Virus record (IMG/VR): IMGVR_UViG_3300022547_000006
Coordinates: 1 to 29,435 of that record
Direction: 5' to 3' (one strand)
Length of the DNA stretch: 29,435 bases
DNA from: a virus
The notes beneath the pieces were generated by a model. The model made no database searches. It saw nothing but the letters and a program-made list of their open reading frames with translations, and was not told the origin of the DNA. Both the position numbers and the translations under genes were made by a program. Below, in pieces: positions 1-29,167 of the stretch; the first letter of the stretch is position 1; each line of letters starts with the position of its first letter.

Positions 1-127
1 TGACAAAAATAGTAAGGCTTATATACCCTCTAATACCAATATATAATTAAGGTTGATAAGAGGGAGGCGAACGAAAAAGATGGCGGAAATAAGCGGCGCG
101 GCGGCTGGTCGCGCGGCGGCGGAAGTG
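1..127 (+). repeat. Inverted-repeat cassette R, truncated copy (promoter + RBS + first 16 codons)
   Basis: Identical to 26453-26579. Bases 2-127 are the reverse complement of 2857-2982. Sequence diverges from the other copy at 128. Confidence 0.95.
11..67 (+). promoter_or_regulatory. Archaeal promoter within cassette R (TTATATA 19-25, second AT box 38-50) and RBS GGAGG (63-67); present in all four R copies and pointing into the island
   Basis: A-rich BRE-like stretch, TATA box, and GGAGG 12 nt before ATG 80. Confidence 0.7.
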
Positions 128-268
128 CGACGGCTCCCGACCAATGAACGGGGCGATCTGGTCAAAAGGTCGCCCCGGGATGTTGTAGGTGCTAGCGCCC
201 GAGCTCAGCGAAGGATGAGCACGGAAAAAGCGGGGTGCCGAGGATCAACACGAAGGAGGAAAAAATAG
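80..268 (+). CDS. 62-aa ORF: R-encoded N-terminus MAEISGAAAGRAAAEV plus an Arg-rich tail; may be a non-functional by-product of promoter duplication
   Basis: ATG 80 has an RBS. The first 16 codons are shared with the 49-aa ORF. The tail has low-complexity composition. Confidence 0.35.
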   Translation: MAEISGAAAGRAAAEVRRLPTNERGDLVKRSPRDVVGASARAQRRMSTEKAGCRGSTRRRKK

Positions 269-285
269 AATAGGAGGTGAAATGT

Positions 286-597
286 ATGAAAGCAATAATA
301 AATGGAAAGAAGTACGACACGGAAACTGCGGAGCAGATCGCGGATGATGGTTTTGGTCATCCAAGAGATTTCCGATATTGGAGCGAAGTGTTATACAAAA
401 CGAAGAAAGGGAACTACTTCATCGCGGGTGAGGGTGGTGCACTAAGCAAATACGCGGTTCCGGCCGGGGGCAATAGCACTTCGGGCAGTTCACGAATCTG
501 CGCACTCACTCGTGCTGAGGCTTTCGAGTGGTGCCAGGAGCATAACGCGACGGAAGCAATAGAGGCCCACTTCTCCGATCTGGTCGAAGACGCGTGA
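286..597 (+). CDS. Conserved phage-type hypothetical protein (103 aa, MKAIINGKKYDTETA...)
   Basis: GGAGGTGA (273-280) lies 5 nt before ATG 286. The IINGKxYDTETA / LYxTxxGxYF / GEGG / SKYA motifs resemble a family I recall from bacterial phages and prophages. Confidence 0.85.
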   Translation: MKAIINGKKYDTETAEQIADDGFGHPRDFRYWSEVLYKTKKGNYFIAGEGGALSKYAVPAGGNSTSGSSRICALTRAEAFEWCQEHNATEAIEAHFSDLVEDA

Positions 598-648
598 AAC
601 TGTCTCTCGCCTGCGCAACATGTCCGGCACAGAGGAAATTGGAATGAA

Positions 649-678
649 GGGGCCCGAGTCCGGGCCCCTGTATTTTTT
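649..678 (+). terminator. Hairpin GGGGCCCG-agtc-CGGGCCCC followed by a T-tract
   Basis: Perfect 8-bp stem at 649-668 and T6 at 673-678, downstream of 286-597. Confidence 0.6.
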
Positions 679-818
679 CCCCTACCTGACATCCTCTCCG
701 CCCTGAAGGGCGAGACTTTCTACGTGAAAAAAATGGTAATACGGGAGAGTACAAAGTAATATAAGCTTACCCTGCTCATCTCAATTACTTATCAAAGATC
801 TTAGGAGGTGATAAACAA

Positions 819-1037
819 ATGAGTGAACTATACAATCGAGATATTTTCGCGCTTTGCGAGTGGATGGATGACATGAAAGCGGAAATGCTCGCTTCGCAGA
901 GTGCGCGGCTACATCGCGGTTTCATACCAGAAGAGAAGCGGCGGTACATGGAGCTGCTCGCACAGATTAGGGCGCGAGTGGAAGCTATGGATACTGGCGA
1001 CTTCCCGGAAGTGCATCCGCAAACACTCGCAGAATGA
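819..1037 (+). CDS. Hypothetical helical protein (72 aa) with its own promoter
   Basis: TAATATAA at 757-764 and GGAGGTGA at 804-811 before ATG 819. Confidence 0.8.
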   Translation: MSELYNRDIFALCEWMDDMKAEMLASQSARLHRGFIPEEKRRYMELLAQIRARVEAMDTGDFPEVHPQTLAE

Positions 1038-1038
1038 A

Positions 1039-1056
1039 CGGGCACTTTTTTGCCCG
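1039..1056. terminator. CGGGCA-cttttt-TGCCCG hairpin/T-tract where the two island operons converge
   Basis: 6-bp perfect stem just after stop 1037 and near the opposing stop at 1093. Confidence 0.45.
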
Positions 1057-1092
1057 CCTTCCCCTAAGTTTGTTGGCTATGCCGGGTTGGTA

Positions 1093-1284
1093 TTAGGTGC
1101 GATGTTTGATCATCACCTGCATGAGCTCTTTGCCTGAGATGCGGTAAACGACGAAGCGCGCGCCTGTGTCGTCAACTACCGTTCTGACGCGCCGCGCTTT
1201 TTCCTTGATGTCGGGCCAGCACGCTTCATGGTTCGCGTTTCGCATCATGCGAATGGTTTTACGACGCGGGATGATCACGGTCAT
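1093..1284 (-). CDS. 63-aa protein, paralogue of 3168-3422
   Basis: AGGTGA upstream; shared RN-x2-H-x3-W-x2-IK-x-K ... D-x-G ... VYRIS-x3-L-x-Q-x-M pattern. Confidence 0.75.
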   Translation of the reverse strand: MTVIIPRRKTIRMMRNANHEACWPDIKEKARRVRTVVDDTGARFVVYRISGKELMQVMIKHRT

Positions 1285-1350
1285 TTTTCTCTCTTCACCT
1301 TCGCTGCTGCGTTTTTTCTTGCATATTTTCTACGCCTCCTGCTGATCTTC

Positions 1351-2412
1351 TCAGTACCTCGCTGGTGTGCGTCGATCCTTGCCCGCATCTATGTAGAGTG
1401 TCTGCGCGATCCGCAGTGCCAAGTCCGCTGCAACTTCATCACTGATATGATACGCACCCTGAAGTAGCTCACAACACAAGATCCCTTCAGTGATACACTC
1501 ACGCATGAACGTCGGGCTATCATTAGCGATCTCCTCTTTCGTATGTTCATTCATCTTATCGGCCATTGTTGTCTTCTCCACAGGCTTCGCTTCTAGCTCT
1601 TGCAGCTTCTTCTCCATTTCCTTATAACTCTCTATCACGAGCTCGCGCGGGATCGCCATACGCGCCTTGCCCTCCTTGTTCGCTACATTGAGGCTCGCGG
1701 GGATAAACCAGCTTCCGTCCTTCTTGCGCTTGATCAGCTTCGCTGGATAGCGTATCTTCAGGCCCGCTACTTCGCCTTGGCCTTCCAGGATCTCCACCGT
1801 TCTCGAGTCACCGCGCACTTCCACGAGCCGCCCTACTACAATCGCCGGGGGCACCTTGCCCTCCTCGCGGTAGATGTAGAAGTTCCTGATCGGTGGTAGC
1901 TTCCTGCAATCGTCACGCTGTAGGAATGCAGGCCGACCGTCACGTTCCACTATCTGGTCATCTTCATCTACGGGCACCGCTGAGAAGTTGCCGTTGGGGT
2001 ACTGGTCACTATACTTCCGAGTGATCCAGACCTTCGGATACGGGGACTCCTCATCAAGTATGCTCGTCGGAAGCTTCAACTTGAATTTCAGGCCCTTTCC
2101 CTCCGCTCGGTCATCATATCGCTCGTACCCGAGCGCCCTTAAGATGGCGTACTCCAGCTCCAAGTCATCTTCGGTCTTCTTAGCTGTGCCTTCCTTCACT
2201 AGCGTAGGATTGGCTGCTTCACCATTGAGCTGCTTCTGCTGCTGCTTTTTCGCGCTGGACTCCTCTTTCGGGGAGGTGTTAGGGAGAGTGCTTTCTCCGC
2301 TTTCTGCATCCTCAGCCAGGACTACCATATCATGTGCCGTTGGGATTGGGAACATGCCTTCGAGTTCGTGTAGCTCGTCTTCACTGAAGTTGAAGTCTTC
2401 TAGGTCGTTCAT
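1351..2412 (-). CDS. 353-aa hypothetical protein (acidic N-terminus, beta-rich core, helical C-terminus); possible ssDNA-binding or recombination protein
   Basis: GGGAGGAG RBS before ATG 2412, which overlaps the upstream stop (ATGA). The function is a weak inference. Confidence 0.8.
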   Translation of the reverse strand: MNDLEDFNFSEDELHELEGMFPIPTAHDMVVLAEDAESGESTLPNTSPKEESSAKKQQQKQLNGEAANPTLVKEGTAKKTEDDLELEYAILRALGYERYDDRAEGKGLKFKLKLPTSILDEESPYPKVWITRKYSDQYPNGNFSAVPVDEDDQIVERDGRPAFLQRDDCRKLPPIRNFYIYREEGKVPPAIVVGRLVEVRGDSRTVEILEGQGEVAGLKIRYPAKLIKRKKDGSWFIPASLNVANKEGKARMAIPRELVIESYKEMEKKLQELEAKPVEKTTMADKMNEHTKEEIANDSPTFMRECITEGILCCELLQGAYHISDEVAADLALRIAQTLYIDAGKDRRTPARY

Positions 2413-2573
2413 AGGTTCTCCTCCCGGATCTCGATCATATCCAGCAGATCGCACTCGCTCGCGCACTCCTGCACCGCTAGCTTCAGATCATCTAGCGCAC
2501 TAATGACCAAAACGGGATTGCCGATAACCGTAACTACGAGCTTCGCGCCCGCAACACCGTTATGTGCTTTCAT
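2409..2573 (-). CDS. 54-aa hypothetical protein MKAHNGVAGAKLVVTVIGNPVLVISALDDLKLAVQECASECDLLDMIEIREENL (not in ORF track)
   Basis: Fills the gap exactly: it overlaps the upstream stop, and its TGA overlaps ATG 2412. Confidence 0.65.
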   Translation of the reverse strand: MKAHNGVAGAKLVVTVIGNPVLVISALDDLKLAVQECASECDLLDMIEIREENL

Positions 2574-2754
2574 TGCCACACTCCCCGCCAGCCGCCTTCC
2601 GTAACCCCTCTCGCACCAATTGCGCCGCGATCGTGGCGAGTCCGATCCTGGCTCCGCCTTTGCCGCGTGCGCGTCGTATCTCTTTTTCTGCTTTCGCTAT
2701 CTCCTCAAGTTGCTGCAACTCGCTCGTGTCAAGCGTGATGAACAGATGCGGCAT
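2560..2754 (-). CDS. 64-aa putative ribbon-helix-helix-like DNA-binding protein
   Basis: Strand HLFITL, helix SELQQLEEIAKAE and helix LATIAAQLVREGLRK. ATG abuts the upstream TAA. Confidence 0.6.
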   Translation of the reverse strand: MPHLFITLDTSELQQLEEIAKAEKEIRRARGKGGARIGLATIAAQLVREGLRKAAGGECGNEST

Positions 2755-2904
2755 TTATATCCCCCCACTCTTCTCCGCCCGCGACAATACATACGATAGT
2801 AGCGCGAGCTCGAACCCGCGCCGTATGGCCTCGCTTTTACCGTCTTCGGCCGCCGACACTTCCGCCGCCGCGCGACCAGCCGCCGCGCCGCTTATTTCCG
2901 CCAT
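2755..2904 (-). CDS. 49-aa ORF MAEISGAAAGRAAAEVSAAEDGKSEAIRRGFELALLSYVLSRAEKSGGI (not in ORF track)
   Basis: First ORF after the R promoter and RBS. Its TAA abuts the next ATG (2754). Confidence 0.6.
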   Translation of the reverse strand: MAEISGAAAGRAAAEVSAAEDGKSEAIRRGFELALLSYVLSRAEKSGGI

Positions 2905-3013
2905 CTTTTTCGTTCGCCTCCCTCTTATCAACCTTAATTATATATTGGTATTAGAGGGTATATAAGCCTTACTATTTTTGTCGCCGCTCCCCATATGCCA
3001 AAATGTAGGGGGG
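2857..3013 (-). repeat. Inverted-repeat cassette R (157 bp), copy 2
   Basis: Reverse complement of 26423-26579 with one mismatch (2983). Confidence 0.95.
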
Positions 3014-3070: not shown

Positions 3071-3211
3071 TCATTTTGAGCGTTTCGGTGTGGTTATGCT
3101 CATCACGCGCTCGCTACCGCACTTGCAGCTCGGCTTCGGGGTCGGCACTCTAGTCCAGAAGACTTCGTTACATTCCAGGCACTTCCACCAATACTTCGTC
3201 TTTAGACTCAT
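3071..3211 (-). CDS. 46-aa Zn-ribbon microprotein MSLKTKYWWKCLECNEVFWTRVPTPKPSCKCGSERVMSITTPKRSK (not in ORF track)
   Basis: CxxC...CxCGS motif. It overlaps the 3' end of 3168-3422 in another frame. Confidence 0.75.
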   Translation of the reverse strand: MSLKTKYWWKCLECNEVFWTRVPTPKPSCKCGSERVMSITTPKRSK

Positions 3212-3422
3212 TTCGCTTCAATATTCGCTGTGAGTGCATCGCATACGGCATCATGATCTGTATGAGGTCGACCGCGCTGATGCGATACACCAGGCAGGGG
3301 CCGCAGTCGCGTTCCTGTAGCCCTAAATATTCGGACTTTGCCTTGATCGCTTGCCACTTGTGAAGGTGGTGATCGTTCCGCTTTATGCTGATTACTATTT
3401 TCGGCAGCTTCTTACTTCCCAT
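3168..3422 (-). CDS. 84-aa protein, paralogue of 1093-1284
   Basis: Shared motifs, including VYRIS; lies in an operon after 3441-4430. Confidence 0.75.
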   Translation of the reverse strand: MGSKKLPKIVISIKRNDHHLHKWQAIKAKSEYLGLQERDCGPCLVYRISAVDLIQIMMPYAMHSQRILKRNESKDEVLVEVPGM

Positions 3423-3440
3423 CTTCGCCCGTTTCCAGAC

Positions 3441-4430
3441 CTATATGGTAGAACTGCCTTGAGGTCGCCCTTTATCGTGCCGTGCTTCTCGTTCCGCAAG
3501 TGCGAGCTCGCGCATCTTCTTCAGAGCTGCTGCGTACTCTTCAGACTCTGTACGAGGTCGCTGTAGCACGTTCTTGAATCGGTCTGCCTGGTACTCTTCG
3601 CGTGTCTTCCTAGCGCCCCAGGGGAGAACGATCTTGCCAGCGAGTTCTTTAAGCTTCGCACCAAGCCCCGCTACAAATTCGCAGCAGTCTTTCAACGCAC
3701 CATAAATGCCGCGATTCGCACCTGCTCGCTGTAATGCTTCAATGCCGTGCTGCTCCACCTTCTCAGCTCGCTGGCTCAAATAATTGCCGAGGAATCCGTA
3801 CAGCAGCTTGCGGATGTACGGGCCTCTTCGGGAGGCGAAGACGTAAGCGATATTGCTGCCGTTCTGGTTGCTTCGTCGCGCCATGCCGCGCAGGTGCATG
3901 TTCGCCGCCTTGTCTTGCTCGTCAGCAATCACGACTACGCAAGTATCTCGTACCTCCTCCTGACGGTAGTGCAGAATCTTCACTCGCGCCCGCGCAGCGG
4001 CATATAAGATCTCTTCCGCAGCCTCCTTCGTGAGTTTGGCGACATGGACGAAGACTATCTTGAGATATTCAACATAATCCTCGCCTTTTGCCGGGAAGGT
4101 GGGAACGACCGCAACCGCAATTCGCCGGATATTATTGCTGATCTTTCTTACCGCGCCGCGCCCTTCTTCGCCTTCGCGTGGAAGGATCATCCGATAGTTG
4201 ATGAGCATGCTCGGGTGGATCTTCCACGGTAATCTTCGCACCGCCCACATATACGCGGTCTTCTCCTGGTATAATTCGTTCACAAAATCGTTGAAAAGGC
4301 CGTTGAACCGCGTTGCGCCTTTTCTCGTCGCTGTCTCTTGGTTGCCTTCAACCCCTTCGGCAACCGATACCTTTTTATACCCCTCTACCTTATTTAAAGT
4401 AGGTGAGGTATTCCCAACAGATACTCTCAT
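3441..4430 (-). CDS. 329-aa hypothetical protein; possible degenerate restriction-endonuclease-like (Mrr-type) fold; candidate replication or DNA-binding protein
   Basis: GGGAGG 7 nt before ATG 4430. Strand/helix pattern IVFVHVAK-LTKEAAEEIL...TCVVVIA-DEQDKAA...IAYVF. The fold is inference only. Confidence 0.8.
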   Translation of the reverse strand: MRVSVGNTSPTLNKVEGYKKVSVAEGVEGNQETATRKGATRFNGLFNDFVNELYQEKTAYMWAVRRLPWKIHPSMLINYRMILPREGEEGRGAVRKISNNIRRIAVAVVPTFPAKGEDYVEYLKIVFVHVAKLTKEAAEEILYAAARARVKILHYRQEEVRDTCVVVIADEQDKAANMHLRGMARRSNQNGSNIAYVFASRRGPYIRKLLYGFLGNYLSQRAEKVEQHGIEALQRAGANRGIYGALKDCCEFVAGLGAKLKELAGKIVLPWGARKTREEYQADRFKNVLQRPRTESEEYAAALKKMRELALAEREARHDKGRPQGSSTI

Positions 4431-4746
4431 CTTTTTTCCTCCCTTTTTTTTCTTCTTCCGCTTCAGCGATGCCACCGCATTCGTCATGTTGATACTTCTT
4501 ACTACTCGCAGTATTAAAAAGGCATAGGTTCAGCTCACCTTTTCGGAGCTTGCGGACGAGCATCTCGCCGTAATTTGCATCATTCGGTGGCTGGTTCGTA
4601 GAGAAGAAGGCTGAGAGGATCGCCTCGATCAACTCTGACCGGGATATTTTTAGCTCTTTCGTCAGCTTCTCCATCGCTTGCTCCAAACGCTCTTTAAGCG
4701 CAGGATTTACCGCAGCTGTCACGATCGCATAATTTTTAGGGGCCAT
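4390..4746 (-). CDS. Ribbon-helix-helix (CopG-like) transcriptional regulator
   Basis: YAIVTAAVNPALKERLEQAM...ISRSELIEAILSAFF is a typical RHH pattern. TTTATATA (4779-4772) lies 25 nt upstream. Confidence 0.8.
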   Translation of the reverse strand: MAPKNYAIVTAAVNPALKERLEQAMEKLTKELKISRSELIEAILSAFFSTNQPPNDANYGEMLVRKLRKGELNLCLFNTASSKKYQHDECGGIAEAEEEKKGRKKDESICWEYLTYFK

Positions 4747-4920
4747 AATAATTTTATATAGATTATAAGAGTATATAAAGGTAGCACATGCTGCCCATGC
4801 ACCTGCTTCTTAAACGAGAGATAACAATAGAATATATTAATAGAATTCTAGTAGAATTTTACTCGTGGATACCCTACCCTACCCTATCCTAACTTTTAAG
4901 AATCCAGCCCGTTAAACCGA
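4747..4920. promoter_or_regulatory. AT-rich intergenic region with the RHH-operon promoter, TAGAAT x3, palindrome TAGAATTCTA and a (TACCC)3 array; candidate replication origin
   Basis: Motifs at 4828, 4841 and 4852, and at 4870-4893. Origin function is inference. Confidence 0.45.
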
Positions 4921-5015
4921 ATGGTGTCTTTACCACTGTTAGGTGAACTACCACCCAACAAGTTGAGTGGCTTCCTGCTTCCACGATTCTCCAGCAAGAA
5001 TCTCCACAGGCGTTG

Positions 5016-5225
5016 CTATAGATTCGAACAGCCCCTGCTGCGTCTCGCTTCTTCTGCGAGTACCCGGTTCCTTGTGAAGATCTCCTCGATCGTGAGTGCC
5101 CGTGCGAGATTGAGCACTTCTAGAAAGATCTCGGTATCCGAAAGCCCGCGTTTACGCGCATCAATCACCGTCTGCCGCAGCCAGTGATTGAACTCCAGTG
5201 CCGTGATCTGCTCCTTTTCGGTCAT
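5016..5225 (-). CDS. Hypothetical protein (69 aa)
   Basis: Clean ORF 15 nt downstream of hjc with helical composition. Confidence 0.65.
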   Translation of the reverse strand: MTEKEQITALEFNHWLRQTVIDARKRGLSDTEIFLEVLNLARALTIEEIFTRNRVLAEEARRSRGCSNL

Positions 5226-5240
5226 CTTAGCTCGCCCGTC

Positions 5241-5552
5241 CTAGTAGAATTTCCACTTCTCCTTGTGTTCTCGAAGATTCTGCCGCACCATTAAGATCCA
5301 CGATACCCCAGGTACGGGATGGTCCTTCTTCCACTGCTCGAGCACCTTGAGAAAGCCCTGGGTGCGGCCCGTCTTCACCTGTACGAAATGTACTTGATCG
5401 CCATTGACCGCTACGAAATCGAACATATTGAAGATGTCCTTGTCCGTGAACCTGCTGCATCGAGTGGGCCGATAGACACTCCAGCCGTACTTCTCATACT
5501 CTTCTCGAGCTTCGCGTTCCGAGAGATCGCCTTTAGACTTCGCACTGTTCAT
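5241..5552 (-). CDS. hjc: Archaeal-type Holliday junction resolvase (Hjc, PD-(D/E)xK)
   Basis: KGxxxERE...GWxVxR...FDFVA...VQVK motifs; upstream TATA-like box at 5596-5586. Confidence 0.88.
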   Translation of the reverse strand: MNSAKSKGDLSEREAREEYEKYGWSVYRPTRCSRFTDKDIFNMFDFVAVNGDQVHFVQVKTGRTQGFLKVLEQWKKDHPVPGVSWILMVRQNLREHKEKWKFY

Positions 5553-11166: not shown

Positions 11167-12915
11167 TTACGACCTCACGTAATCTTTAAGTTCGCGTTTG
11201 AGTTCCTCCTTTAGCTTGCGCGCTAAATCGCGTAGGTCCGTCTCAGAGCGTATCGCCGCGGTAATCGTGACCGGCATATTAATATTAATCTCGGTAGTCG
11301 CTGGCGATCCGCCAGCTGTGGATGGCGCGAACGTTTCAGGGTATGCGATGGGCTTAACCGCGGGCGCGACAACCGGCGCGAACGTCCGCGAATCAAGCGC
11401 GACTTCACCTGCGCCCTGAACGAGTGTGAGTGGGATCTGCTTGCCGATTTCCAATAACGTAGGCGAAAAGCTAAGGGTACCTAATGCCCAGCTCCCGAGT
11501 TCGCTAGATACGTAGGACAGCCCGCTGCGGATATGACCCATTATGCGGCTACCGATATCGCCGATGCCGCGTATGAAGCTGCTCACGAGCTCCGCGCCGG
11601 CGTTGTACGCAGTCCGCGCCCAATCTCTAAGCGAGCTATCTACTGTCGGTAGCTTACTGCGTATATGCGACCAGATACGCGCGCCGATATCGCCGATCCC
11701 TGTGATGAACCGCATCACGAGTTCGCCCCCGGGTGTAGTGAATAGGCTGGTCCATCGCGTTAATTCCGTCATAACCGTGCCGATCTTACGCTGTGACCAG
11801 GTCCAGATACGCGCGCCGATATCGCCGATCCCTTTTAGCAGTGATTCCACGAGCGCGTAGCCGGGGCCGTAGAAAGTGGCGGCCCACGTATCCAGCTCGG
11901 TCTGCACTGTACCGATTGTGCTTGCGATACCAGCCCATACCCGCGAACCGATATCGCCGATGCCCGCTACGAGCCTATCTAACTCTGTACGGATTGCCGC
12001 ATCATACGATGCTAAGATAGCCTCTGTTGAGGTTTTGAACGCGCGCCAGTGTACGAGTGCTTCCCCGAATATCCGCTTGAGCTCGCCCGGTATCTGTTTC
12101 AGTTCGCCCTCCATGACCAATACCGCGATCGCGCCGAGCGCCTGCAACGGGGCCGTTACCGCCATGAAGAAATCGCTGAAGATGGGGTGAGCCTTACCGA
12201 ACTCGTCAATCACGTTGCCGAGTGCCTTCGTGACCCCCGAAGTATATAGCTTCCAGATTACCAATCCGCCCAGTACTAATGTAGCGATCGTTGCGAACGT
12301 TGCAGCCAGGCCAGCACCCGCTAGCAGAGATGCGAAGAACGCCTTGATACCCGCGATAAGCGGTATTAGCGTCGCCTTGATCGAGGCGAAGATGCTCGCT
12401 AAGCCCGCAGCGGCGAAGATAGCCTTTACGGCTGCGATCGCGGAGACGAGTCCTAAGAAGCCTGTCGCGGCCCCGATTATGACGCCCGTAGCTAGTTTTA
12501 CGGGCCCCGGTAATGAGACGAACAGATCCCCCACCTTCCAGAGGAAATCGAGTAACGGATCTATTACCGGTGCCATCGAAACCCCGATTTCATCAAAAAC
12601 AGAGCCGATAATCATACCGAACTCGGAAAAGTAGCCGCGGATCACCGCTGAGCTTTTCGCGACCGCGTAGAGCGATGCGATTGCGGCCGCGCCAACCGCG
12701 ATCCAGCCCATCTTCCATTTACTAAGGAATCCTTCGATTTTCTTCGTCTCCTCCAACACTCCCGATCCAGTCGTCTTCGTCGCCGTACCCATCTTCTTAA
12801 GTTCTATATCCGAGACGCTCGCGACATCCTTAACTTCACGCTGGACTGATCGCAGACCGGCAAGCGCATCCGCTACCTCGGAGGATACAACAACCTGGAG
12901 ATTCGCAACCTCCAT
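11167..12915 (-). CDS. Tape measure protein (582 aa)
   Basis: Follows the chaperone; Ala/Gly-rich hydrophobic helices; four 44-aa GIGDIGxRIW repeats; typical INMPVTIT C-terminus. Confidence 0.88.
   Translation of the reverse strand: MEVANLQVVVSSEVADALAGLRSVQREVKDVASVSDIELKKMGTATKTTGSGVLEETKKIEGFLSKWKMGWIAVGAAAIASLYAVAKSSAVIRGYFSEFGMIIGSVFDEIGVSMAPVIDPLLDFLWKVGDLFVSLPGPVKLATGVIIGAATGFLGLVSAIAAVKAIFAAAGLASIFASIKATLIPLIAGIKAFFASLLAGAGLAATFATIATLVLGGLVIWKLYTSGVTKALGNVIDEFGKAHPIFSDFFMAVTAPLQALGAIAVLVMEGELKQIPGELKRIFGEALVHWRAFKTSTEAILASYDAAIRTELDRLVAGIGDIGSRVWAGIASTIGTVQTELDTWAATFYGPGYALVESLLKGIGDIGARIWTWSQRKIGTVMTELTRWTSLFTTPGGELVMRFITGIGDIGARIWSHIRSKLPTVDSSLRDWARTAYNAGAELVSSFIRGIGDIGSRIMGHIRSGLSYVSSELGSWALGTLSFSPTLLEIGKQIPLTLVQGAGEVALDSRTFAPVVAPAVKPIAYPETFAPSTAGGSPATTEININMPVTITAAIRSETDLRDLARKLKEELKRELKDYVRS
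11555..11963 (-). repeat. Four 132-bp (44-aa) repeats in the tape measure gene
   Basis: ATATCGCCGAT recurs at 11555, 11687, 11819 and 11951. Confidence 0.9.
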
Positions 12916-13473: not shown

Positions 13474-14442
13474 TTACGGTCCTGTCTCGTTCGGATATGC
13501 TGAGATCGCATCAACTACGATGATCTCCAGACTGCGCATCTTGATGAGCACGTCCACCTCCATCTTACCCTTCTCGGGTATTGGATGTGGCGCCTCCGGC
13601 ATGAAGCACGTGTATCCAGCCGCGTTCTTGATCTCGATTGAATCGCTCGTTCCGCGCGATATCTTGAAGTCAATGTCGAACTCCGTCTCCGCGCCGATAT
13701 GATCAAAGATGTCAAGGCTCGTGGGTACGATGGTCGCTTTCATCTCGACCGTCTGCTCGTTCTCATCTAATTCGTAGGGATAATCAGCGTTTTCATTTTG
13801 CCAATACCAGGATTGCTCCAGGTGGTTGTCAACGGTGAGGGACCAGTTCTTCACGCGCGCGAACGGTGTACCCCAAAGAGTCAGATTCGTACTCGTCTGA
13901 TGGAACTGATATGGCTTGATATCCAATGGTACGACCGTGCTCGGCGTGTTCGTGGATTTGTAGCCCTTTGCCGCGAGCACATCGAGCGTCGCCTTGATCA
14001 CGCCCTTCTCCGTGCCCTCCAGCGTCATGCGATTCACCTTCACGCCGGTATAGTACCGCAGATAATTGGTAGTACCGTCTCCGATTGTCGCCTCCACAAC
14101 AAAACTCGGTAACTCGTCCGCCGTCTGGATCGTGTGCGTAAATGGTGGACTTGTTCCTGTCTTCACCGATTTCCCGAGTCCAAACACGAGCGCCTTGCCG
14201 TGTTGCAGCGTGAACGGGATCGAACCCTCGAAGACTATCTCGTTCCGATCTACGCCTGTCGGTACCCGTGACGCGCTCCCCGCGACCCGATAGATTTCGT
14301 ATGCCCGTTTCGGGTCTGGCAGCGGGATCTTATCCCGGAGTAGTCCGAAGACCTCGGTCTGCGCCTCTGCCGTTGGTGTCTCGTTATAGTCAGTCTCTTC
14401 TTTCCAACTCAGATAGGCCGTTGAAGCCTTTAATGTTCCCAT
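13474..14442 (-). CDS. Major tail (tube) protein
   Basis: 322 aa; YLRYYTGVKVNRMTLEG...ATLDVLA and NWSLTVDNHLE patterns of siphoviral tube proteins; gene order. Confidence 0.85.
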   Translation of the reverse strand: MGTLKASTAYLSWKEETDYNETPTAEAQTEVFGLLRDKIPLPDPKRAYEIYRVAGSASRVPTGVDRNEIVFEGSIPFTLQHGKALVFGLGKSVKTGTSPPFTHTIQTADELPSFVVEATIGDGTTNYLRYYTGVKVNRMTLEGTEKGVIKATLDVLAAKGYKSTNTPSTVVPLDIKPYQFHQTSTNLTLWGTPFARVKNWSLTVDNHLEQSWYWQNENADYPYELDENEQTVEMKATIVPTSLDIFDHIGAETEFDIDFKISRGTSDSIEIKNAAGYTCFMPEAPHPIPEKGKMEVDVLIKMRSLEIIVVDAISAYPNETGP

Positions 14443-18818: not shown

Positions 18819-20000
18819 TCAACCCTTCGCGATGTACTTGATCGCCGCGTGGCAGTTGAACCGGTCCGCGATCAGGTTACCTCCGAACAGGATATCGTGG
18901 AAGATCTGCGTGTAGTCCATGCGCAGATAGTCGTTGCCCATATCGGTGTGGAAGTAGCTGATCGGCAGCGAGACTCGCAGCTCGATGTGGTCGAGGTCAA
19001 TGAAGTACAGGTTGCCCGCACCTCCACTCACAGGTACTGCAACGTTCGGATCGCTGAAGACCGGGATAGTGAGCCCATTCGTGATCAGGGAGGCGACCGG
19101 TATTCTGCCCGCGCCATGCCCGCGCCGGGTGACTACTCCGTCCTGCGTGAACTCGACCTCGTTCTGCCCGTGCAGTATCCGGCCCTTGGGGTCAATGAGC
19201 TTCTGGATCGTATTGATCGTGTCGTCGTTCGTTAGCGCGATATAGTTCCCGCTTCCGTACCTCTTCGCCGCGGCCATGATATCATCTATCATCTCTAGCG
19301 TGAGCGCGCGATTTTCCTCCGTTGCCGGGAGATCTACCTGCGCGTCCCAAGTCGTCGCCGATGAGCGGTCTATACTCTTCGAGGTTTGGGTCTGCCAGAG
19401 ATCGCAATCGCCCGCGTCAATCCATGATGCATCATCTTCCGCCTTGCAGCTTATGATACGGTCGAGCGAGTCCGGCTTGTTCGTGCTCAGCGTGTCTACG
19501 GTCTGCAGGAGCTGATAGTCGAGCAGATGTACGTACCGTTCCATATTGTACTTTCTGAGCAGCTCAGGCGTGAAGTTCGGCTTGGCCGTCCAGCCCGCTT
19601 TGAGCTGAGCCTGCATCGAGACCTTCCAGGGCAGATCCACGTAGCCCGGCTCGATGTAGTTGATATCCGAAACGTCCGGTACGTCCGTATCAACGGAGGC
19701 GAACAGCGCAGTTGTTTCAGTTACTGCCCTGAGCGTGTTCACGGTCGAGTACACGTACGGATCGGCCGGAATGTATTTGATCGAGTCGCCCTTCTCCATG
19801 TACGTCGTCTTCGGAAACAGCCGATACGCGGTCTCCGCGCGTACCGCCCATGCTTCGATCATCGCGGAATATTTCGGGTCGAAGTAGTCTGTGCGCGCGA
19901 CCAGATACGGGTCATCTGCTTTTCGGAGTAGTCCGTTCATGCCGATTTCGCGCCGATACCAGAGATCCAGGAACTCCTCAAATGTCCGTGGTGTGTCCAT
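18819..20000 (-). CDS. Major capsid protein (HK97-fold, 393 aa)
   Basis: Follows the protease/scaffold gene; size; KADxP...PKxxY..G N-terminal pattern recalled from archaeal tailed-virus MCPs; LYFIDLDHI...GNLIA C-terminal strands. Confidence 0.85.
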   Translation of the reverse strand: MDTPRTFEEFLDLWYRREIGMNGLLRKADDPYLVARTDYFDPKYSAMIEAWAVRAETAYRLFPKTTYMEKGDSIKYIPADPYVYSTVNTLRAVTETTALFASVDTDVPDVSDINYIEPGYVDLPWKVSMQAQLKAGWTAKPNFTPELLRKYNMERYVHLLDYQLLQTVDTLSTNKPDSLDRIISCKAEDDASWIDAGDCDLWQTQTSKSIDRSSATTWDAQVDLPATEENRALTLEMIDDIMAAAKRYGSGNYIALTNDDTINTIQKLIDPKGRILHGQNEVEFTQDGVVTRRGHGAGRIPVASLITNGLTIPVFSDPNVAVPVSGGAGNLYFIDLDHIELRVSLPISYFHTDMGNDYLRMDYTQIFHDILFGGNLIADRFNCHAAIKYIAKG

Positions 20001-21147: not shown

Positions 21148-21396
21148 CTAAACTTCGATCGTCCTGATTACAGGCTGGCATTTGTATACCTCCTCATAGG
21201 CTTCGCTAGCGGCTTCGCGTTCACTCTTACCCTTACTGATCAGTTGTGTCCGCACCTCTTCGTATTCCCGATGTAGGTATTTGAGGACGGTCTCATGCGT
21301 GACGCCATACTTCTCCGCAAGCTGCCCCATCGACATGTACCGGACGTCATTACGCATCTCTGCGACCTGCTCGCGACTGAGCTTCAGAGGTTTCAT
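21148..21396 (-). CDS. HTH DNA-binding protein (82 aa)
   Basis: MSMGQLAEKYGVTHETVLKYL; ATG 21396 overlaps the upstream TGA. Confidence 0.75.
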   Translation of the reverse strand: MKPLKLSREQVAEMRNDVRYMSMGQLAEKYGVTHETVLKYLHREYEEVRTQLISKGKSEREAASEAYEEVYKCQPVIRTIEV

Positions 21397-21941
21397 CGCC
21401 CCTTTACCTCCCGGAGCCGCGCCGTAACGTCTTCCGCGAGATGCGCCTTGATCTCCTCCGCCGCCGGACGCATGAACGGCCGCGGCTCTAGGCTGTGCGC
21501 CTTGATATCCTTTGCGATATAGAACGCGATCGCCCACCAGTCAGAATCGCGCGTCTTCACCGAGCCGATGATACCCTTCTTCAGCATCCACCGCTTAATT
21601 CCCGTGAGCGACTCGGGATCGCGCGGCGTGAGCTTATGCCGGCGGACCCATTCATAGATCACCTTCAGAGGTGGCATCTTGTCCGTGTACGTTGCTCCGA
21701 ACTCGACGTAGATCGCGTGTAGCGCATCGTAGCTGATTATACGTTCTAACTCACGCGGCTTCGTGATATGCCCGCTCTGAAGTAACGTGCCGCGGTCAAA
21801 GCTCTGCTTCGTAACGAGCTCCTGCGACAGCTGGAAACCGCGATCGGTCGAGTCCCCGATCCCCAGGTCTATCGCATCAAGTAGCGTATCGGTAAGTTCC
21901 TCTAGCCCTTCTAGCTTCACTGTGATTTTACTCGTTATCAT
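21393..21941 (-). CDS. HK97 gp10-like (putative neck/tail-completion) protein
   Basis: VKLEGLEEL, GTLLQSG, AIYVEFG and PRPFMRPA motifs. Confidence 0.8.
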   Translation of the reverse strand: MITSKITVKLEGLEELTDTLLDAIDLGIGDSTDRGFQLSQELVTKQSFDRGTLLQSGHITKPRELERIISYDALHAIYVEFGATYTDKMPPLKVIYEWVRRHKLTPRDPESLTGIKRWMLKKGIIGSVKTRDSDWWAIAFYIAKDIKAHSLEPRPFMRPAAEEIKAHLAEDVTARLREVKGR

Positions 21942-22176: not shown

Positions 22177-24309
22177 CTACACTACACGCACGAAGCTCGA
22201 CCGGCAGCCGTAATGAGCCACGAACTCGCGCACGTACCTGAAGCGCGAGCCCGTCTCCTCTGCGAACCGTTCTGACTCCGCCTTCACAATCTCTTTTAGC
22301 TTCGCGAGCGGAACGCCCTTTACGGTCCGGTCTACAATCCGCCGGCAACATTCAGTTGTCCGCGCGTCCTTTGGATTGAGCCACTTGTACCGCCATTCGC
22401 CCGCGGGATCGCGTTCCACGTAATCGAGCTCGCGCGCCTTGTTCAGTACCGCGGACATCTCCGTACGGCCGATGATATCTGCACGCGCCTCGGTGAGCCC
22501 GAGCTCCTTGATGAGATCCTCGCGGATCTTGCGCAAGCTGATGTTCGGCTGCGTGAAGTGCCGCGTGAGGATTTGATTCACGAGGTCGGACTCTTGGCCC
22601 GTAAGCCCGTAATATTCCTGCCAGAGCGTGCCCGCGTAGATTGCCTCATAGACCTGCTCCCAACGCGCCTTTACCAGCAACTCTTCTTCAGGTAGATACA
22701 GCCAGTCCTCCCCAAATTGGCCGAGCCCGGGGGCCGTGTGGGCCCGACCCCCGGGCTCAAGTTGTGTGGTATCGTTAGGTCTGAATAAGGTTATTTCGTC
22801 CTGCCGCATCTGCAGGTCGTCATACGCCTGCGCTTTACGTGCGATTTCGCCAGCTGCGAATGGCGACGGCATCGTTACATCGGGCCGCGAGGCGGACCCG
22901 GAGAAGACGAACTCGCCATTCTCGTCTAGCTCTACCGCGAAGCCCATATCGAGCATCGCGCGCGCATTCTGGATCTTCATACTCTCGATGGTAAGCTTCT
23001 TCTGCTCGCTTTCAGCGGTCGGCGGCTTCAGCGTGAGCTTCCAGTCCGTAACACCCATCGTAGTGAGGAGCTGAGGGAGTACCTTCTCGTTGTACGTCAT
23101 CTGCTTCGCTTTTGCGCGGTCCTCCTGGACGAGGAGCTGTTGCCCCTCGCCAGAAAGTGCCGAGGATCTTTCGACATCTGCAGCGTAGAGCGGAACGACA
23201 CCGTAGACCGTATTGATCGTCTTCTTGATCTGGTCGCGTGTGTCAATATTTGTGAGGTCCGCGACCGAGTCATCGGTGAGCGATATCTTCTGTACTGTGC
23301 CGTGGCCCGTCTGCGACTCGATACCGACGAATGGGACCTCACCGGCTTTCGATTGTTCGATGATTTCCGCCTTTACCTTATTGAGCGCTGCGGGATTGCT
23401 CGTCGTGACCGCGATGATGTCTTTCGGAAGGACCTTGTTCCAGAAACGCTCGTAGAGCTCATCATCCATACCCCATTCGACGAGGACCGACTTGAGGATT
23501 GCGTAGATGGGAGAATAGCCTTTCGGATCGTAGAAATGCCAGTCAATGAATTCTTTCTGCGCGTAGTATCGCTTTGTACCTTTTTTATCGTCGTACACAT
23601 ACCATGCCTGGAGAAGTGGCGTGCTGCACTTGATACAGTATCCTGGTTCGCTATATATCCGGTCTCGATGCTGGATGCAGAAGTATTCGCGTACATGCCG
23701 ACCCTCTTTATCGAGATTATGCGTGACGAGCTCCGGCGGAATTGATTCAATTGCCGTGACTCGCTTGCCCGCGAAGCTGGGCTTGCCGTCATCCGTGAGC
23801 GAGTTGAGCTCGTATTCAGTTTCGAGCCAGAGTACCGCCGTGTCTACTTGATTTATCTGATCCTCTGCCTCTTCGAGCACCTCCTGAAGCGACTGGTCGT
23901 ACTCATTGACGTCGTGGAAGAAGTCTTCTGCATTCTCTTGCTGCTTCTGGTCCGGCTCGCGGGTCGTGGCGCCGCAACGTTCGCAGGTCGGTATCTTCTG
24001 CTCGAACTCCGCGCCGCACTTCGTGCACTTACTGCCGAAGCGAGGGAGCCACTCGAAGCCGTTTTTAAACACACACTCGCGGAGAGTAATTCGGGCATTT
24101 AGAATGCTCGATGTGTCGCGGCAGATTTGGCGAAGTTCCGGGAATTGGTACTGTTGGTATTCGCGCTGATAATCATCGAGTGTTTTTTGTTTCGGTTTGT
24201 TCTGCGTGAGCGCAATGCGCCAACTAGCCTTCGCGAAAGTTGATGCTGTGTCCATGCGCGGCCCGCCTTTTCGGAAGATCAGGGGTAACTTGAGATCGAA
24301 AAGACCCAT
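22177..24309 (-). CDS. Portal protein with Zn-ribbon insertions, fused to a C-terminal MuF (SPP1 gp7-like) domain
   Basis: Follows TerL. Portal core pattern (GxSPI, FxNxxxP, FGVxPL-like YGVVPL). C-terminal RAxxIGRTE...KW...DARTTxxC...HYGCRS. Confidence 0.88.
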   Translation of the reverse strand: MGLFDLKLPLIFRKGGPRMDTASTFAKASWRIALTQNKPKQKTLDDYQREYQQYQFPELRQICRDTSSILNARITLRECVFKNGFEWLPRFGSKCTKCGAEFEQKIPTCERCGATTREPDQKQQENAEDFFHDVNEYDQSLQEVLEEAEDQINQVDTAVLWLETEYELNSLTDDGKPSFAGKRVTAIESIPPELVTHNLDKEGRHVREYFCIQHRDRIYSEPGYCIKCSTPLLQAWYVYDDKKGTKRYYAQKEFIDWHFYDPKGYSPIYAILKSVLVEWGMDDELYERFWNKVLPKDIIAVTTSNPAALNKVKAEIIEQSKAGEVPFVGIESQTGHGTVQKISLTDDSVADLTNIDTRDQIKKTINTVYGVVPLYAADVERSSALSGEGQQLLVQEDRAKAKQMTYNEKVLPQLLTTMGVTDWKLTLKPPTAESEQKKLTIESMKIQNARAMLDMGFAVELDENGEFVFSGSASRPDVTMPSPFAAGEIARKAQAYDDLQMRQDEITLFRPNDTTQLEPGGRAHTAPGLGQFGEDWLYLPEEELLVKARWEQVYEAIYAGTLWQEYYGLTGQESDLVNQILTRHFTQPNISLRKIREDLIKELGLTEARADIIGRTEMSAVLNKARELDYVERDPAGEWRYKWLNPKDARTTECCRRIVDRTVKGVPLAKLKEIVKAESERFAEETGSRFRYVREFVAHYGCRSSFVRVV

Positions 24310-24594: not shown

Positions 24595-25965
24595 TTAGAG
24601 GGGGCTCCAACGTGGCTTAGCGCGCGCGGGGCCGCGGAACGCCTCAGCGAGCCCCCCAAAGTTGATGATGCTATCTCCGCGCGTCACGCCCGAAACGATA
24701 TACCGGAGCGCATCGAGCCGGTGATAAGATTCCTTATCTCTGATCCTGAGCGTAGGCTCACCGAGCTCATTTACCTCGCGTGAGTAGGTATTGATCTCAT
24801 CGAGGATACCAACGCACGTCGTGAAGAAATATAGTCGGCGTTCACGGAGTAGCTGAGTCACGCGGTCTATCTGAGCCTCGACGTCTTTGAGCGGCGGCGC
24901 GCGTAGATTCACGCCCTCATGCTGCCAGTCGAGCCGCACCTGCAGCTCGGAGGTCGAGCCGCCGATCCAGCCCGTAACGTTCTCGCCTTCCGCGCGCGCT
25001 AAGGCGCGCTGCGCATGAGCGGCCGCGTGCAACCCGCCCTCTAGTGTTTCCTGATAGACGTAATAGCAGCCGGTTAGTGGCTCCTGAGCGAGCCAGACCG
25101 TAGCGGTATGGAGCGGCCCGGGATCAACGCCCACGCACCGCGGCCACTCGGGCGGGACCTTGAACGGTGCGACGACATGGATCTTCGGGTCAAAGTCCGC
25201 GTAGATCATACCCGCGGGCCGCGCGAATATCCCTTGATACTGCATACTGAACTTCCAGCCCGGTAGCGTGCGCCGTGCTCGCTCGTATTCCTCACGCGGG
25301 AAGACTGGATTAGCGAGGCTATCAAATTGTATCACGTCATAGTCAGGGTCCCCACGTTCCCAGCGCGTGTAGATCTCGTTTCTGAGCCAGCCGAAGTTAT
25401 AAAGCGTTGTAGTGCCGAGTACCCGGCCGCGTGAGAGTGAGAGCCTGCGTAGGATGGATTCCCAGGCGCTGATACTGAAATCATCGAGCCCGCACTCATC
25501 GAGCCACGCCGCCTTTACGGTCGCGGATTCCAAAGCCGATACACCCACCTTGCCACGCCCCGCAGAAGCGGATGCGAGTAGGATACGGCCCCACATAGAG
25601 TCGTGCGCGGAAACGGCTTCAAACTTGTTAGTCTTGGGGTTCTTGATTTCGATGAGATTAGAACTGCCCCAGTAGCGACCAACCTTCATCACGTCCGTGA
25701 ATACATTTATGAGTTCCGGGAGCATCTTCCGCGTGAAGAGCGGATAGTTCGCCGTGACAGCCAGATAATCGCCCGCCCCTTTGCCGATTTCCTCATCGAA
25801 GATCTCACGCCAGAGCCACCAGGGGCCGAATACAGTCTTGCCGGATTGCGTGCCCGCGAGTATGAATATCAGCCGCTTTTTAGATTCCCACGCCTGGAGC
25901 TGGCCGTCGTGTAGTGCCAGCTCGGGTTCGTTAGTTGTCGGATTGATCTGAAAGAACGGCCTCAT
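24595..25965 (-). CDS. terL: Terminase large subunit
   Basis: Walker A AGTQSGKT, Walker B AWLDE, GTTT coupling motif, nuclease GVDPG and HxxDALRY. Start placed at ATG 25965. Confidence 0.95.
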   Translation of the reverse strand: MRPFFQINPTTNEPELALHDGQLQAWESKKRLIFILAGTQSGKTVFGPWWLWREIFDEEIGKGAGDYLAVTANYPLFTRKMLPELINVFTDVMKVGRYWGSSNLIEIKNPKTNKFEAVSAHDSMWGRILLASASAGRGKVGVSALESATVKAAWLDECGLDDFSISAWESILRRLSLSRGRVLGTTTLYNFGWLRNEIYTRWERGDPDYDVIQFDSLANPVFPREEYERARRTLPGWKFSMQYQGIFARPAGMIYADFDPKIHVVAPFKVPPEWPRCVGVDPGPLHTATVWLAQEPLTGCYYVYQETLEGGLHAAAHAQRALARAEGENVTGWIGGSTSELQVRLDWQHEGVNLRAPPLKDVEAQIDRVTQLLRERRLYFFTTCVGILDEINTYSREVNELGEPTLRIRDKESYHRLDALRYIVSGVTRGDSIINFGGLAEAFRGPARAKPRWSPL

Positions 25966-26377
25966 CGTCACGAGTCTGCCGGTACACATTCACAACCCTT
26001 ATGGGTACATCCGCTTCCAGCTTAACGGTTTCTTCGAGCCGTTGCTTCTCCGACCAGTCGAACCCGAGCTGGAGTGCGAGCTTGATTGCGGGCACATCGC
26101 CTTCCATCGCTTTCTTCACCAGCGCGAGCATGATCCTATCCGCATAGGCTTTAATGGGCGGACGCAATTCGGTGATATCGAGTTTCGCCATGTGCAGGCA
26201 TACCGTTTTGCGTGACACGCCGCAGAAATCAGCAACCTCCTGCTCCGTAGGTATCCGCATCTCCTTCATAGAGATCCGGCGGTACGCATCCTTTATAGCG
26301 AGATGTATCTGCTCCCAATCTTTTCGTGTTTTTCGCATAGTTATGTTACGTTTTGTAACCGATATGACATGAGACAC
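25931..26377 (-). CDS. terS: Terminase small subunit (HTH); start either GTG 26377 or ATG 26338
   Basis: PTEQEVADFCGVSRKTV HTH, AMEGDVPAIKL, directly upstream of and overlapping terL; TTAATAT box at 26408-26402. Confidence 0.8.
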   Translation of the reverse strand: MSHVISVTKRNITMRKTRKDWEQIHLAIKDAYRRISMKEMRIPTEQEVADFCGVSRKTVCLHMAKLDITELRPPIKAYADRIMLALVKKAMEGDVPAIKLALQLGFDWSEKQRLEETVKLEADVPIRVVNVYRQTRDDEAVLSDQSDN

Positions 26378-26422: not shown

Positions 26423-26579
26423 CCCCCCTACATTTTGGCATATGGGGAGCGGTGACAAAAATAGTAAGGCTTATATACCCTCTAATACCAATATATAATT
26501 AAGGTTGATAAGAGGGAGGCGAACGAAAAAGATGGCGGAAATAAGCGGCGCGGCGGCTGGTCGCGCGGCGGCGGAAGTG
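26423..26579 (+). repeat. Inverted-repeat cassette R (157 bp), copy 1
   Basis: CCCCCCTACATTTTGGCATATGGGGAGCGG followed by the 127 bp identical to 1-127. Confidence 0.95.
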
Positions 26580-26681
26580 TCGGCGGCCGAAGACGGTAAA
26601 AGCGAGGCCATACGGCGCGGGTTCGAGCTCGCGCTACTATCGTATGTATTGTCGCGGGCGGAGAAGAGTGGGGGGATATAA
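26532..26681 (+). CDS. 49-aa ORF (duplicate of 2755-2904)
   Basis: Mirror copy in the terminal duplication. Confidence 0.6.
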   Translation: MAEISGAAAGRAAAEVSAAEDGKSEAIRRGFELALLSYVLSRAEKSGGI

Positions 26682-26876
26682 ATGCCGCATCTGTTCATCA
26701 CGCTTGACACGAGCGAGTTGCAGCAACTTGAGGAGATAGCGAAAGCAGAAAAAGAGATACGACGCGCACGCGGCAAAGGCGGAGCCAGGATCGGACTCGC
26801 CACGATCGCGGCGCAATTGGTGCGAGAGGGGTTACGGAAGGCGGCTGGCGGGGAGTGTGGCAATGAAAGCACATAA
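26682..26876 (+). CDS. 64-aa RHH-like protein (duplicate of 2560-2754)
   Basis: Mirror copy. Confidence 0.6.
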   Translation: MPHLFITLDTSELQQLEEIAKAEKEIRRARGKGGARIGLATIAAQLVREGLRKAAGGECGNEST

Positions 26877-27027
26877 CGGTGTTGCGGGCGCGAAGCTCGT
26901 AGTTACGGTTATCGGCAATCCCGTTTTGGTCATTAGTGCGCTAGATGATCTGAAGCTAGCGGTGCAGGAGTGCGCGAGCGAGTGCGATCTGCTGGATATG
27001 ATCGAGATCCGGGAGGAGAACCTATGA
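26863..27027 (+). CDS. 54-aa protein (duplicate of 2409-2573)
   Basis: Mirror copy. Confidence 0.65.
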   Translation: MKAHNGVAGAKLVVTVIGNPVLVISALDDLKLAVQECASECDLLDMIEIREENL

Positions 27028-28085: not shown

Positions 28086-28151
28086 GAAGATCAGCAGGAG
28101 GCGTAGAAAATATGCAAGAAAAAACGCAGCAGCGAAGGTGAAGAGAGAAAA

Positions 28152-28343: not shown

Positions 28344-28398
28344 TACCAACCCGGCATAGCCAACAAACTTAGGGGAAGGCGGGCAAAAAAGTGCCCGT

Positions 28399-29150: not shown

Positions 29151-29167
29151 ACATTTCACCTCCTATT

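Follow-up and report, generated by a model that had tools for sequence, protein, structure and literature searches.

Among the known systems close to the locus described here is the L-region of Halobacterium virus PhiH, an 11-kb early/immunity segment flanked by ISH1.8 that inverts by recombination between the repeats (PMC6210493). The Mu G and P1 C segments (Gin/Cin) and the int1 tail-fibre switch of phiCh1/PhiH1 likewise place a segment of a few kilobases between inverted repeats in a tailed virus. The plastid small-single-copy region and the herpesvirus isomers are quadripartite (long unique, repeat, short unique, inverted repeat), and their repeats recombine without a dedicated invertase; plastid and herpesvirus repeats extend over kilobases, and their isomers occur in roughly equal amounts. 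A further resemblance is to the products of de Bruijn over-extension at inverted repeats, in which a contig ends on a k-mer within the repeat and carries a unique segment twice in opposite orientations, while another assembly recovers the same genome as a circular contig (DTR). Support for ITR contigs in IMG/VR is often lacking, with 33% rated high quality (PMC8116208), and 87 vOTUs that hold both DTR and ITR contigs have been flagged as possible artefacts (PMC9610469).

The window analysed here is the whole 29,435-nt stretch of an IMG/VR record that is listed there as an ITR genome, a class that suggests an unusual replication mode for a virus with a terminase and a portal. Repeat comparison, with a pattern far beyond chance, gave exactly the R-X-R'-core-R-X'-R' arrangement that the initial annotation had described, in which the terminal R and R' copies are each 127 nt long and the second copy of X (X') spans 26580 to 29308.

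1 to 127, plus strand: truncated R copy, comprising the T allele at position 1 and the inner 126-nt repeat; the contig path begins on this 127-mer vertex, which equals 26453 to 26579
128 to 2856: segment X, 2,729 bp; orientation A with respect to the core start; two convergent operons
2857 to 3013, plus strand: R', the core-start copy, comprising the inner 126 nt, G at 2983 and the outer 30 nt
2983, plus strand: variable base, the sole difference between the R copies; G here, where 26453 is T (complement A)
3014 to 26422, minus strand: core, 23,409 bp; almost every gene is on the minus strand
26423 to 26579, plus strand: R, the core-end copy, comprising the outer 30 nt, T at 26453 and the inner 126 nt
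26453 to 26580, plus strand: extra 128-mer, comprising the T allele, 126 nt and the first base of the 2856 end of X; the only 128-mer missing from the majority circle
26580 to 29435, minus strand: second pass through X, the reverse complement of 1 to 2856; redundant assembly sequence, not extra genome

The inverted arms run from 1 to 3013 and from 26423 to 29435. Within them lie direct repeats (1 to 127 equals 26453 to 26579, and 2857 to 2982 equals 29309 to 29434) and internal inverted repeats (2 to 127 with 2857 to 2982). The pair of 157-nt inverted repeats that had been proposed is present but not perfect: the two full R copies are identical at 156 of 157 positions, an outer 30 nt and a perfect inner 126 nt being separated by the one variable base, and the arms fail to be fully complementary at 2983, which is G where the complement of 26453 (T) would be A.

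Joining position 26452 to position 1 had been predicted to give a 26,452-bp circle, and we found that circle as a separate MEGAHIT contig of the predicted size. Contig ERZ27245514:k141_103175 is 26,593 nt long (26,452 + 141) and ends in the same 141 nt with which it begins; the parts of it that were compared match the window at 100% identity. Its order, core end, R (T), X (128 to 2856), R' (G) and core start, is orientation A. A SPAdes contig, ERZ1742330 NODE_5185, begins 77 nt within R', crosses X and extends past position 1 into a full R and the terminase end, so that position 1 is not a physical end. The unit genome is thus a 26,452-bp circle with X in the majority orientation A. The three other assemblies with contigs of this virus are 100% identical to the window, and they may come from one sample and so may not represent independent populations.

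If the genome were truly linear, 29,435 bp long and bounded by inverted terminal repeats of 3,013 bp, with a protein-primed or hairpin-telomere mode of replication, this would agree with the IMG/VR classification of the record as ITR. Against a linear genome stand two other assemblies that carry on beyond position 1 through R to the terminase end, a circle of exactly the predicted length, and contig ends that coincide with a k-mer vertex. Coverages of 301 (X plus core) and 283 (core only), taken from SPAdes contig names and not from reads, would put X at about 1.2-fold rather than 2-fold. The gene content also argues against a linear genome, since a terminase and a portal are present. Six-frame searches found no match at E <= 1 to the protein-primed polymerase profile PF03175 (DNA_pol_B_2) or the protelomerase profile PF16684 (ResT/TelK), in agreement with the initial annotation, which had seen no enzyme of either kind, although the absence of a profile match is not absolute proof. 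We therefore give a linear genome almost no credence. The virus probably belongs to the tailed viruses of archaea, and its genome is presumably packaged by the terminase. The core features considered here are as follows.

3168 to 5552: non-structural core genes
5241 to 5552: candidate PD-(D/E)XK-like nuclease, 103 aa (PDDEXK_5, E = 7e-4, below the cut-off)
13474 to 14442, minus strand: tail tube
18819 to 20000, minus strand: major capsid protein
22177 to 24309, minus strand: portal
24595 to 25989, minus strand: large terminase
25931 to 26338, minus strand: small terminase

We also considered the 103-aa core protein as Hjc but kept it as a PD-(D/E)XK-like candidate, the only match, to PDDEXK_5, being sub-threshold and the protein having no PDB relative.

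The 3,013-nt 'ITR' is not a physical feature but an assembly product, in which one 2.7-kb segment has been read twice. Both termini of the contig coincide exactly with the 127-mer 'SNP + 126 nt' (1 to 127 and 29309 to 29435), and it was this 127-nt signature that suggested which assembler and which k lie behind the IMG/VR record. In simulated k=127 graphs, this vertex branches, with two outgoing edges, once the 128-mer at 26453 to 26580 exists, and that one extra 128-mer, the only evidence for a second form, is all that separates the whole window from a pure orientation-A circle. Contigs of JGI 3300010291 break exactly at the vertices predicted for k=123, showing that their ends there are set by k-mer size. 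Unlike in ordinary over-extension, the repeat copies here differ by one base, so a misjoin at k=127 needs a real minority 128-mer and hence some second sequence form in the sample.

The account that we think probably right overall is an over-extended, SPAdes-type k=127 path on the 26,452-bp circle, with the minority 128-mer supplied by a same-orientation variant. The assembler would have walked X, R', the core and R, re-entered X from its other end through the minority 128-mer at 26453 to 26580, and halted on the branching k-mer, leaving the 3,013-nt 'ITR'. The minority 128-mer could come from co-occurring genomes with A instead of G at 2983, which would have a perfect repeat and X in the same orientation; such a 2983-A variant would account for it most simply, with no inversion needed. 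Two contig breaks bear on this variant. SPAdes contig NODE_32398, from another assembly, ends exactly at 2984, a break to be expected only where the core-start flank is followed by both alleles; this agrees with an orientation-A variant or an outer crossover and not with a simple inner-crossover isomer. The opening of the k141 circle falls exactly on the '126 nt + 15 nt of X' vertex, which branches only if both alleles precede it. Two observations pull the other way. If only orientation A existed, an assembler drawing on read pairs should have picked the circle, and its choice may reflect real read-pair support for the other junction. In addition, crossing over within the inner 126 nt to form a true inverted isomer would yield the same 128-mer as the variant.

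Inverted repeats are known hot spots for template-switch chimeras, and since contig and circle differ by one 128-mer only, template switching between the repeat copies during amplification (MDA or library PCR) could in principle have created junction reads that are absent from virions. Links of this kind are usually rare and of low coverage and are removed by assemblers, yet the traces occur in up to three assemblies, and the allele break at 2984 goes unexplained unless the switch fell in the outer 30 nt. We consider an in-vitro chimera very improbable.

R' holds AT-rich TATA-like motifs (read by eye), GAGGGAGG and an ATG, all facing into X. A sigma-70 promoter scan gave no more matches than chance, as expected if the host is archaeal. 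Each 157-nt repeat appears to be a cassette of a putative promoter region, a ribosome-binding site and 16 codons facing X. Because both repeats are the same inward cassette, the two convergent operons of X would share one control sequence. The genes and open reading frames of X are the following.

80 to 268, plus strand: 62-aa Arg-rich leader ORF, starting within the core-end R copy; its first 16 codons (MAEISGAAAGRAAAEV) are common to the 49-aa ORF
286 to 597, plus strand: X103, 103 aa, a gene call without a family match; terminator-like hairpin downstream at 648 to 669
819 to 1037, plus strand: X72, 72 aa, without a family match
1093 to 1284, minus strand: X63, 63 aa, paralogue of the 84-aa protein at 3168 to 3422 (BLASTP E = 1e-7, 35% identity)
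1351 to 2412, minus strand: X353, 353 aa, not assignable to any family or fold; homologues encoded in the non-structural part of a 40-kb relative
2409 to 2573, minus strand: X54, 54 aa, 76% identical to the gene adjoining the X353 homologue in that relative (L003)
2560 to 2754, minus strand: X64, 64 aa, without a family match
2755 to 2904, minus strand: X49, 49-aa ORF whose putative promoter region, ribosome-binding site and first 16 codons lie inside R'; abuts X64

The 62-aa leader ORF is probably a by-product of the duplication. None of the X proteins has a match in Pfam or PHROG. The AlphaFold model of X353 (pLDDT 72) gave no convincing match to PDB (Foldseek) or the ESM Atlas; its best hit in a VIA-wide structure search (Z 6.1) lay on a helical tail and was unconvincing, and no relatives of X353 were found in the viral and metagenome contig collections, which may lack the window's own records. 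A paralogous relationship between X353 and c329 was ruled out (E = 4.9).

The initial annotation had regarded X as an early regulatory island and not a tail-fibre cassette. Tail-fibre genes are indeed absent from the segment, and its genes are non-structural. X is not self-contained, however: a collinear non-structural block runs across R' to about 5552, and X is half of it, the label 'early regulatory' following solely from position.

The same annotation had gone on to propose two inversion isomers on the plastid or herpesvirus model, and this part is not supported. The only trace of a second orientation is one 128-mer, which a same-orientation single-base variant explains equally well, and the variant accounts better for the contig break at 2984. 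The repeat here is 157 nt long, unlike those of plastids and herpesviruses, and one orientation dominates. An equimolar, plastid-like flip-flop is contradicted by the k=141 assembly, which closes a single circle; in simulation, such closure requires the other branch to have been a minority that was pruned. Every contig apart from the window shows X in orientation A.

A rarer event, in which homologous recombination between the 157-nt repeats sometimes flips X to give mostly orientation A and some orientation B, is a possibility that we entertain tentatively and regard as doubtful. X is bounded by 157-nt inverted repeats with 126 nt of perfect identity, in the MEGAHIT circle as well as in the window, and 126 nt of perfect homology is sufficient for homologous recombination. 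The 156/157 identity of the repeats fits ongoing exchange. The 128-mer at 26453 to 26580 joins the core-end T allele to the 2856 end of X, as would be expected of an isomer formed by inner crossover, the k141 circle was opened at the matching vertex, and the 2984 break could represent an outer-30-nt crossover class of the same process. Such an inversion would, however, require two product classes for what one SNP variant explains alone. The B junction occurs in no contig but the window, and the reciprocal junction (the C allele beside position 128) was seen nowhere; three of the four allele/X-end combinations occur among the contigs, and the SNP variant yields the same three. The clean MEGAHIT circle at k=141 means that B must be a pruned minority there.

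The machinery for such inversion would be of the host RadA type, perhaps together with the small viral PD-(D/E)XK-like nuclease candidate at 5241 to 5552, an assignment that is weak given its sub-cut-off E of 7e-4 and want of a PDB relative. Six-frame searches gave no match to serine (PF00239) or tyrosine (PF00589) recombinases, and the X353 model matched no recombinase-like fold. Unlike Mu G, P1 C and the phiCh1/PhiH1 int1 switch, the locus thus has no recombinase gene in any frame and no tail-fibre genes, and inversion of X would change no coding sequence or promoter link. The X junction sequences are the same in either orientation except for one base. With the same cassette at each junction, inversion would have no evident regulatory effect, and a flipped X would amount to a neutral by-product rather than a switch.

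The precedent for inversion is the early/immunity L-region of PhiH, invertible between ISH1.8 copies and, like X, a non-structural, non-tail-fibre segment between inverted repeats in an archaeal tailed virus (PMC6210493). The PhiH repeats are 1.8-kb insertion sequences whose inversion was shown experimentally, whereas here there are 157-nt cassettes, no mobile element and a putative inversion. That a small archaeal tailed virus with no recombinase flips a 2.7-kb non-structural block at low frequency, by homologous recombination between 157-nt promoter cassettes, seems to us unlikely. If this were true, the locus would be an IS-free miniature counterpart of the PhiH L-region or the plastid flip-flop, and the 2983/26453 single-base marker would record crossover positions; confirmed, it would be a modest addition to the known repeat-mediated rearrangements.

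Correcting the record to a 26,452-bp circle alters the genome length, the gene count (X being counted twice) and the inferred biology. The virus offers a clean example of one genome that two assemblies present differently, once as a DTR and once as an ITR contig, and it suggests a simple diagnostic, namely, whether contig ends fall on a k-mer inside the repeat.

Exact-pattern scans for R in viral contigs and for the inner end of R in metagenome contigs found nothing, as did a terminase scan of the genome contig collection. Three relatives identified by their terminase (L005 to L007, 47 to 48% identity) and one by its major capsid protein (L017) have no homologues of the X or core-start proteins, and neither L006 and L007 nor the 40-kb relative L003 has a comparable inverted repeat. 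In L003, the nuclease, RHH, c329, c84, X54 and X353 genes lie on one strand, collinear with orientation A. On our account orientation A is also the ancestral gene order, and the conservation of that order speaks against inversion of X.

Repeat finding in the window placed the inverted arms at 1-3013 and 26423-29435, direct repeats at 1-127 (= 26453-26579) and 2857-2982 (= 29309-29434), and internal inverted repeats at 2-127 and 2857-2982. This is exactly the layout proposed in the initial annotation, namely, R (127 nt), X (128-2856), R' (2857-3013), core (3014-26422), R (26423-26579), X' (26580-29308), and R' (127 nt), where R and R' are the core-end and core-start copies of a 157-nt inverted repeat, X is the 2,729-bp segment between them, and X' is a second traversal of X. 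The 157-nt copies are thus present as described, but the arms are not perfectly complementary, since base-by-base comparison found one mismatch, G at 2983 versus T at 26453 (complement A). As the arms differ only there, each copy can be divided into 30 outer nt, the variable base, and 126 inner nt that match perfectly.

Exact-protein look-ups led to three further assemblies, each with contigs that match the window at 100% identity; all four assemblies may come from one sample. The 26,452-bp circle predicted from joining 26452 to 1 was found as ENA ERZ27245514 k141_103175 (MEGAHIT naming), which is 26,593 nt long, exactly 26,452 + 141, and whose last 141 nt repeat its first 141 nt. In the parts retrieved, the core end is followed by R with T, then X running from 128 to 2856, and then R' with G and the core start (here called orientation A); identity across the remaining 3.3 kb or so is inferred from the exact length. 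In ENA ERZ1742330, NODE_5185 (SPAdes naming, coverage 301) starts exactly 77 nt inside R' and continues through X and across position 1, takes in all of R, and reaches 6.5 kb into the terminase/portal end, while NODE_32398 (coverage 283) spans 5284 down to 2984, ending one base short of the variable position. Four contigs of JGI 3300010291 have ends at 2860, 26576, 5, and 2979.

Because NODE_5185 reads through position 1, that position is not a physical end. Furthermore, a linear genome with real inverted terminal repeats (ITRs) would give X at 2x core depth, whereas the coverages in the two SPAdes contig names (301 versus 283) imply about 1.2x, and we regard such a genome as scarcely credible. 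The 3,013-nt ITR is an assembly-graph path that uses X twice and corresponds to no molecule. The unit genome measures 26,452 bp, with orientation A in the majority. The window is the complete IMG/VR record, classed under "inverted terminal repeats", and CheckV estimates its completeness at 41% despite closure of the genome as a circle. JGI and ENA contigs also end at about 1187-1460, 4040, 5284, 16473, and 19898, where the window has no repeat, suggesting further strain-level polymorphism in the sampled population.

We constructed de Bruijn graphs for four model populations; the assembler and k behind the IMG/VR record were inferred from its 127-nt signature. Of the 128-mers in the 29,435-nt window, exactly one, 26453-26580, was missing from a pure orientation-A circle with the single-nucleotide polymorphism (SNP); it consists of T followed by the 126-nt repeat and one base of X, the first at its 2856 end. 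In the simulations, two minority forms could supply it: an inverted isomer with its crossover in the inner 126 nt, or an orientation-A genome whose repeat is perfect because 2983 is A rather than G. Either makes vertex 1-127 (= 26453-26579) branching, and the window contig starts and ends there. The branch vertices expected with k=123 (5-127, 2857-2979, 2860-2982, and 26454-26576) fit all four JGI contig ends, and every scenario gave the NODE_5185 start, 2933, with k=77. For NODE_32398, a stop at 2984 was predicted only if both alleles follow the core-start flank, which agrees with the orientation-A SNP variant or with a crossover in the outer 30 nt and disagrees with a simple inner-crossover isomer. 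The pure circle has no branch at k=141. The MEGAHIT circle was opened exactly at the vertex formed by the 126 nt plus 15 nt of X, which branches only if both alleles precede it; therefore, a minority branch existed in the k=141 assembly and was then pruned.

A second sequence form does exist at a minority level. One SNP variant (A at 2983, orientation A) would account for the extra 128-mer, the MEGAHIT opening point, and the break at 2984, and probably no inversion is needed. The clean circle obtained at k=141 contradicts an equimolar, plastid-like flip-flop of X. A real minority inversion isomer is a possible, though less probable, source of the second form: the choice of the "wrong" X end by a read-pair-aware assembler suggests that the junction may have some genuine support, but two crossover classes would be required for facts that one SNP variant covers, and the reciprocal junction was not seen in the contigs of the four assemblies. 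That the second form is an in vitro chimera is very unlikely.

The unreliability of metagenomic ITR contigs is known: of the IMG/VR ones that had a completeness estimate, just 33% were of high quality (PMC8116208), and in a Dutch gut study, direct and inverted terminal repeat contigs occurred together in 87 vOTUs, which the authors flagged as possible artifacts (PMC9610469). The window is an explicit case of this pattern.

Each R copy carries AT-rich TATA-like motifs, GAGGGAGG, and an ATG with 16 codons, all directed into X. The 49-amino-acid open reading frame (ORF) X49 (X-encoded proteins are numbered by length) begins in the core-start copy and abuts X64, X54, X353, and X63. A 62-amino-acid Arg-rich ORF, whose first 16 residues are those of X49, begins in the core-end copy and precedes X103 and X72. 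The two operons converge near 1040-1090. In the simplest history, the X49 promoter and 5' end would have been duplicated in inverted orientation, the copy now also driving the second operon. With the same cassette present at both junctions, inverting X would leave every promoter-gene link unchanged. No family or fold was assigned to the X proteins. X63 (1093-1284), the product of the final gene in the X operon, is a paralogue of the core-start protein c84 (3168-3422), the product of the final gene in the adjacent core-start operon (35% identity, E = 1e-7); the large proteins preceding them (353 and 329 amino acids) are unrelated.

A 40-kb relative from another run, L003, has homologues of a nuclease-like gene, a ribbon-helix-helix (RHH) gene, c329, c84, X54, and X353, in that order on one strand, and has no inverted repeat. 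Orientation A is thus the conserved gene order. These six nonstructural genes, common to the window (3168-5552 and 1351-2573) and L003:2456-11194, are 52 to 76% identical, and the block crosses R' to about 5552, so X is only part of it and not the self-contained island first envisaged. The structural module of L003, with a Terminase_3-type terminase, differs from that of the window; the sequences suggest that tailed viruses with no other relationship share a mobile replication/early module.

If inversion of X is real, its nearest precedent is the L-region of Halobacterium virus PhiH, an invertible nonstructural segment between ISH1.8 copies (PMC6210493). Six-frame profile searches of the window found no serine or tyrosine recombinase, protein-primed polymerase, or protelomerase. 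Gin/Cin-type and Int1-type switches were excluded as the family, since the recombinase is absent and inversion would have no switching consequence. A 129-amino-acid head-module protein (21148-21537) gave a weak resolvase-type HTH_7 match (E = 1e-3) without a catalytic domain and was rejected as an invertase; it is read as a DNA-binding protein. No polymerase, primase, helicase, or integrase was recognized in the whole window; replication must therefore rely on host functions or on the unassigned 353- and 329-amino-acid proteins.

The core genes lie nearly all on the minus strand and encode, besides tail and further virion structural proteins, the following.

Principal structural genes of the core
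24595-25989, large terminase (Atlas score 0.99 to terminase clusters)
22177-24309, portal fused to a Mu-F-like domain
18819-20000, SU10-type major capsid protein
13474-14442, tail tube (E = 6e-26)

In a tblastn search of 50,697 GenBank phage records, the portal matched 20, every one an archaeal tailed virus with haloarchaea or Methanomassiliicoccales as hosts, and in L017, a relative found through the capsid protein, a replication-factor-C (RFC)-like AAA+ gene adjoins the capsid gene. For both reasons, an archaeal host is likely. Although the virus is probably archaeal, its proteins are not obviously halophile-like. In a 582-amino-acid gene, located downstream of the tail tube and chaperone genes, a 41-nt core motif occurs four times at 11539-11975, spaced exactly 132 nt (44 codons) apart; the gene looks like a tape-measure gene with internal tandem repeats.
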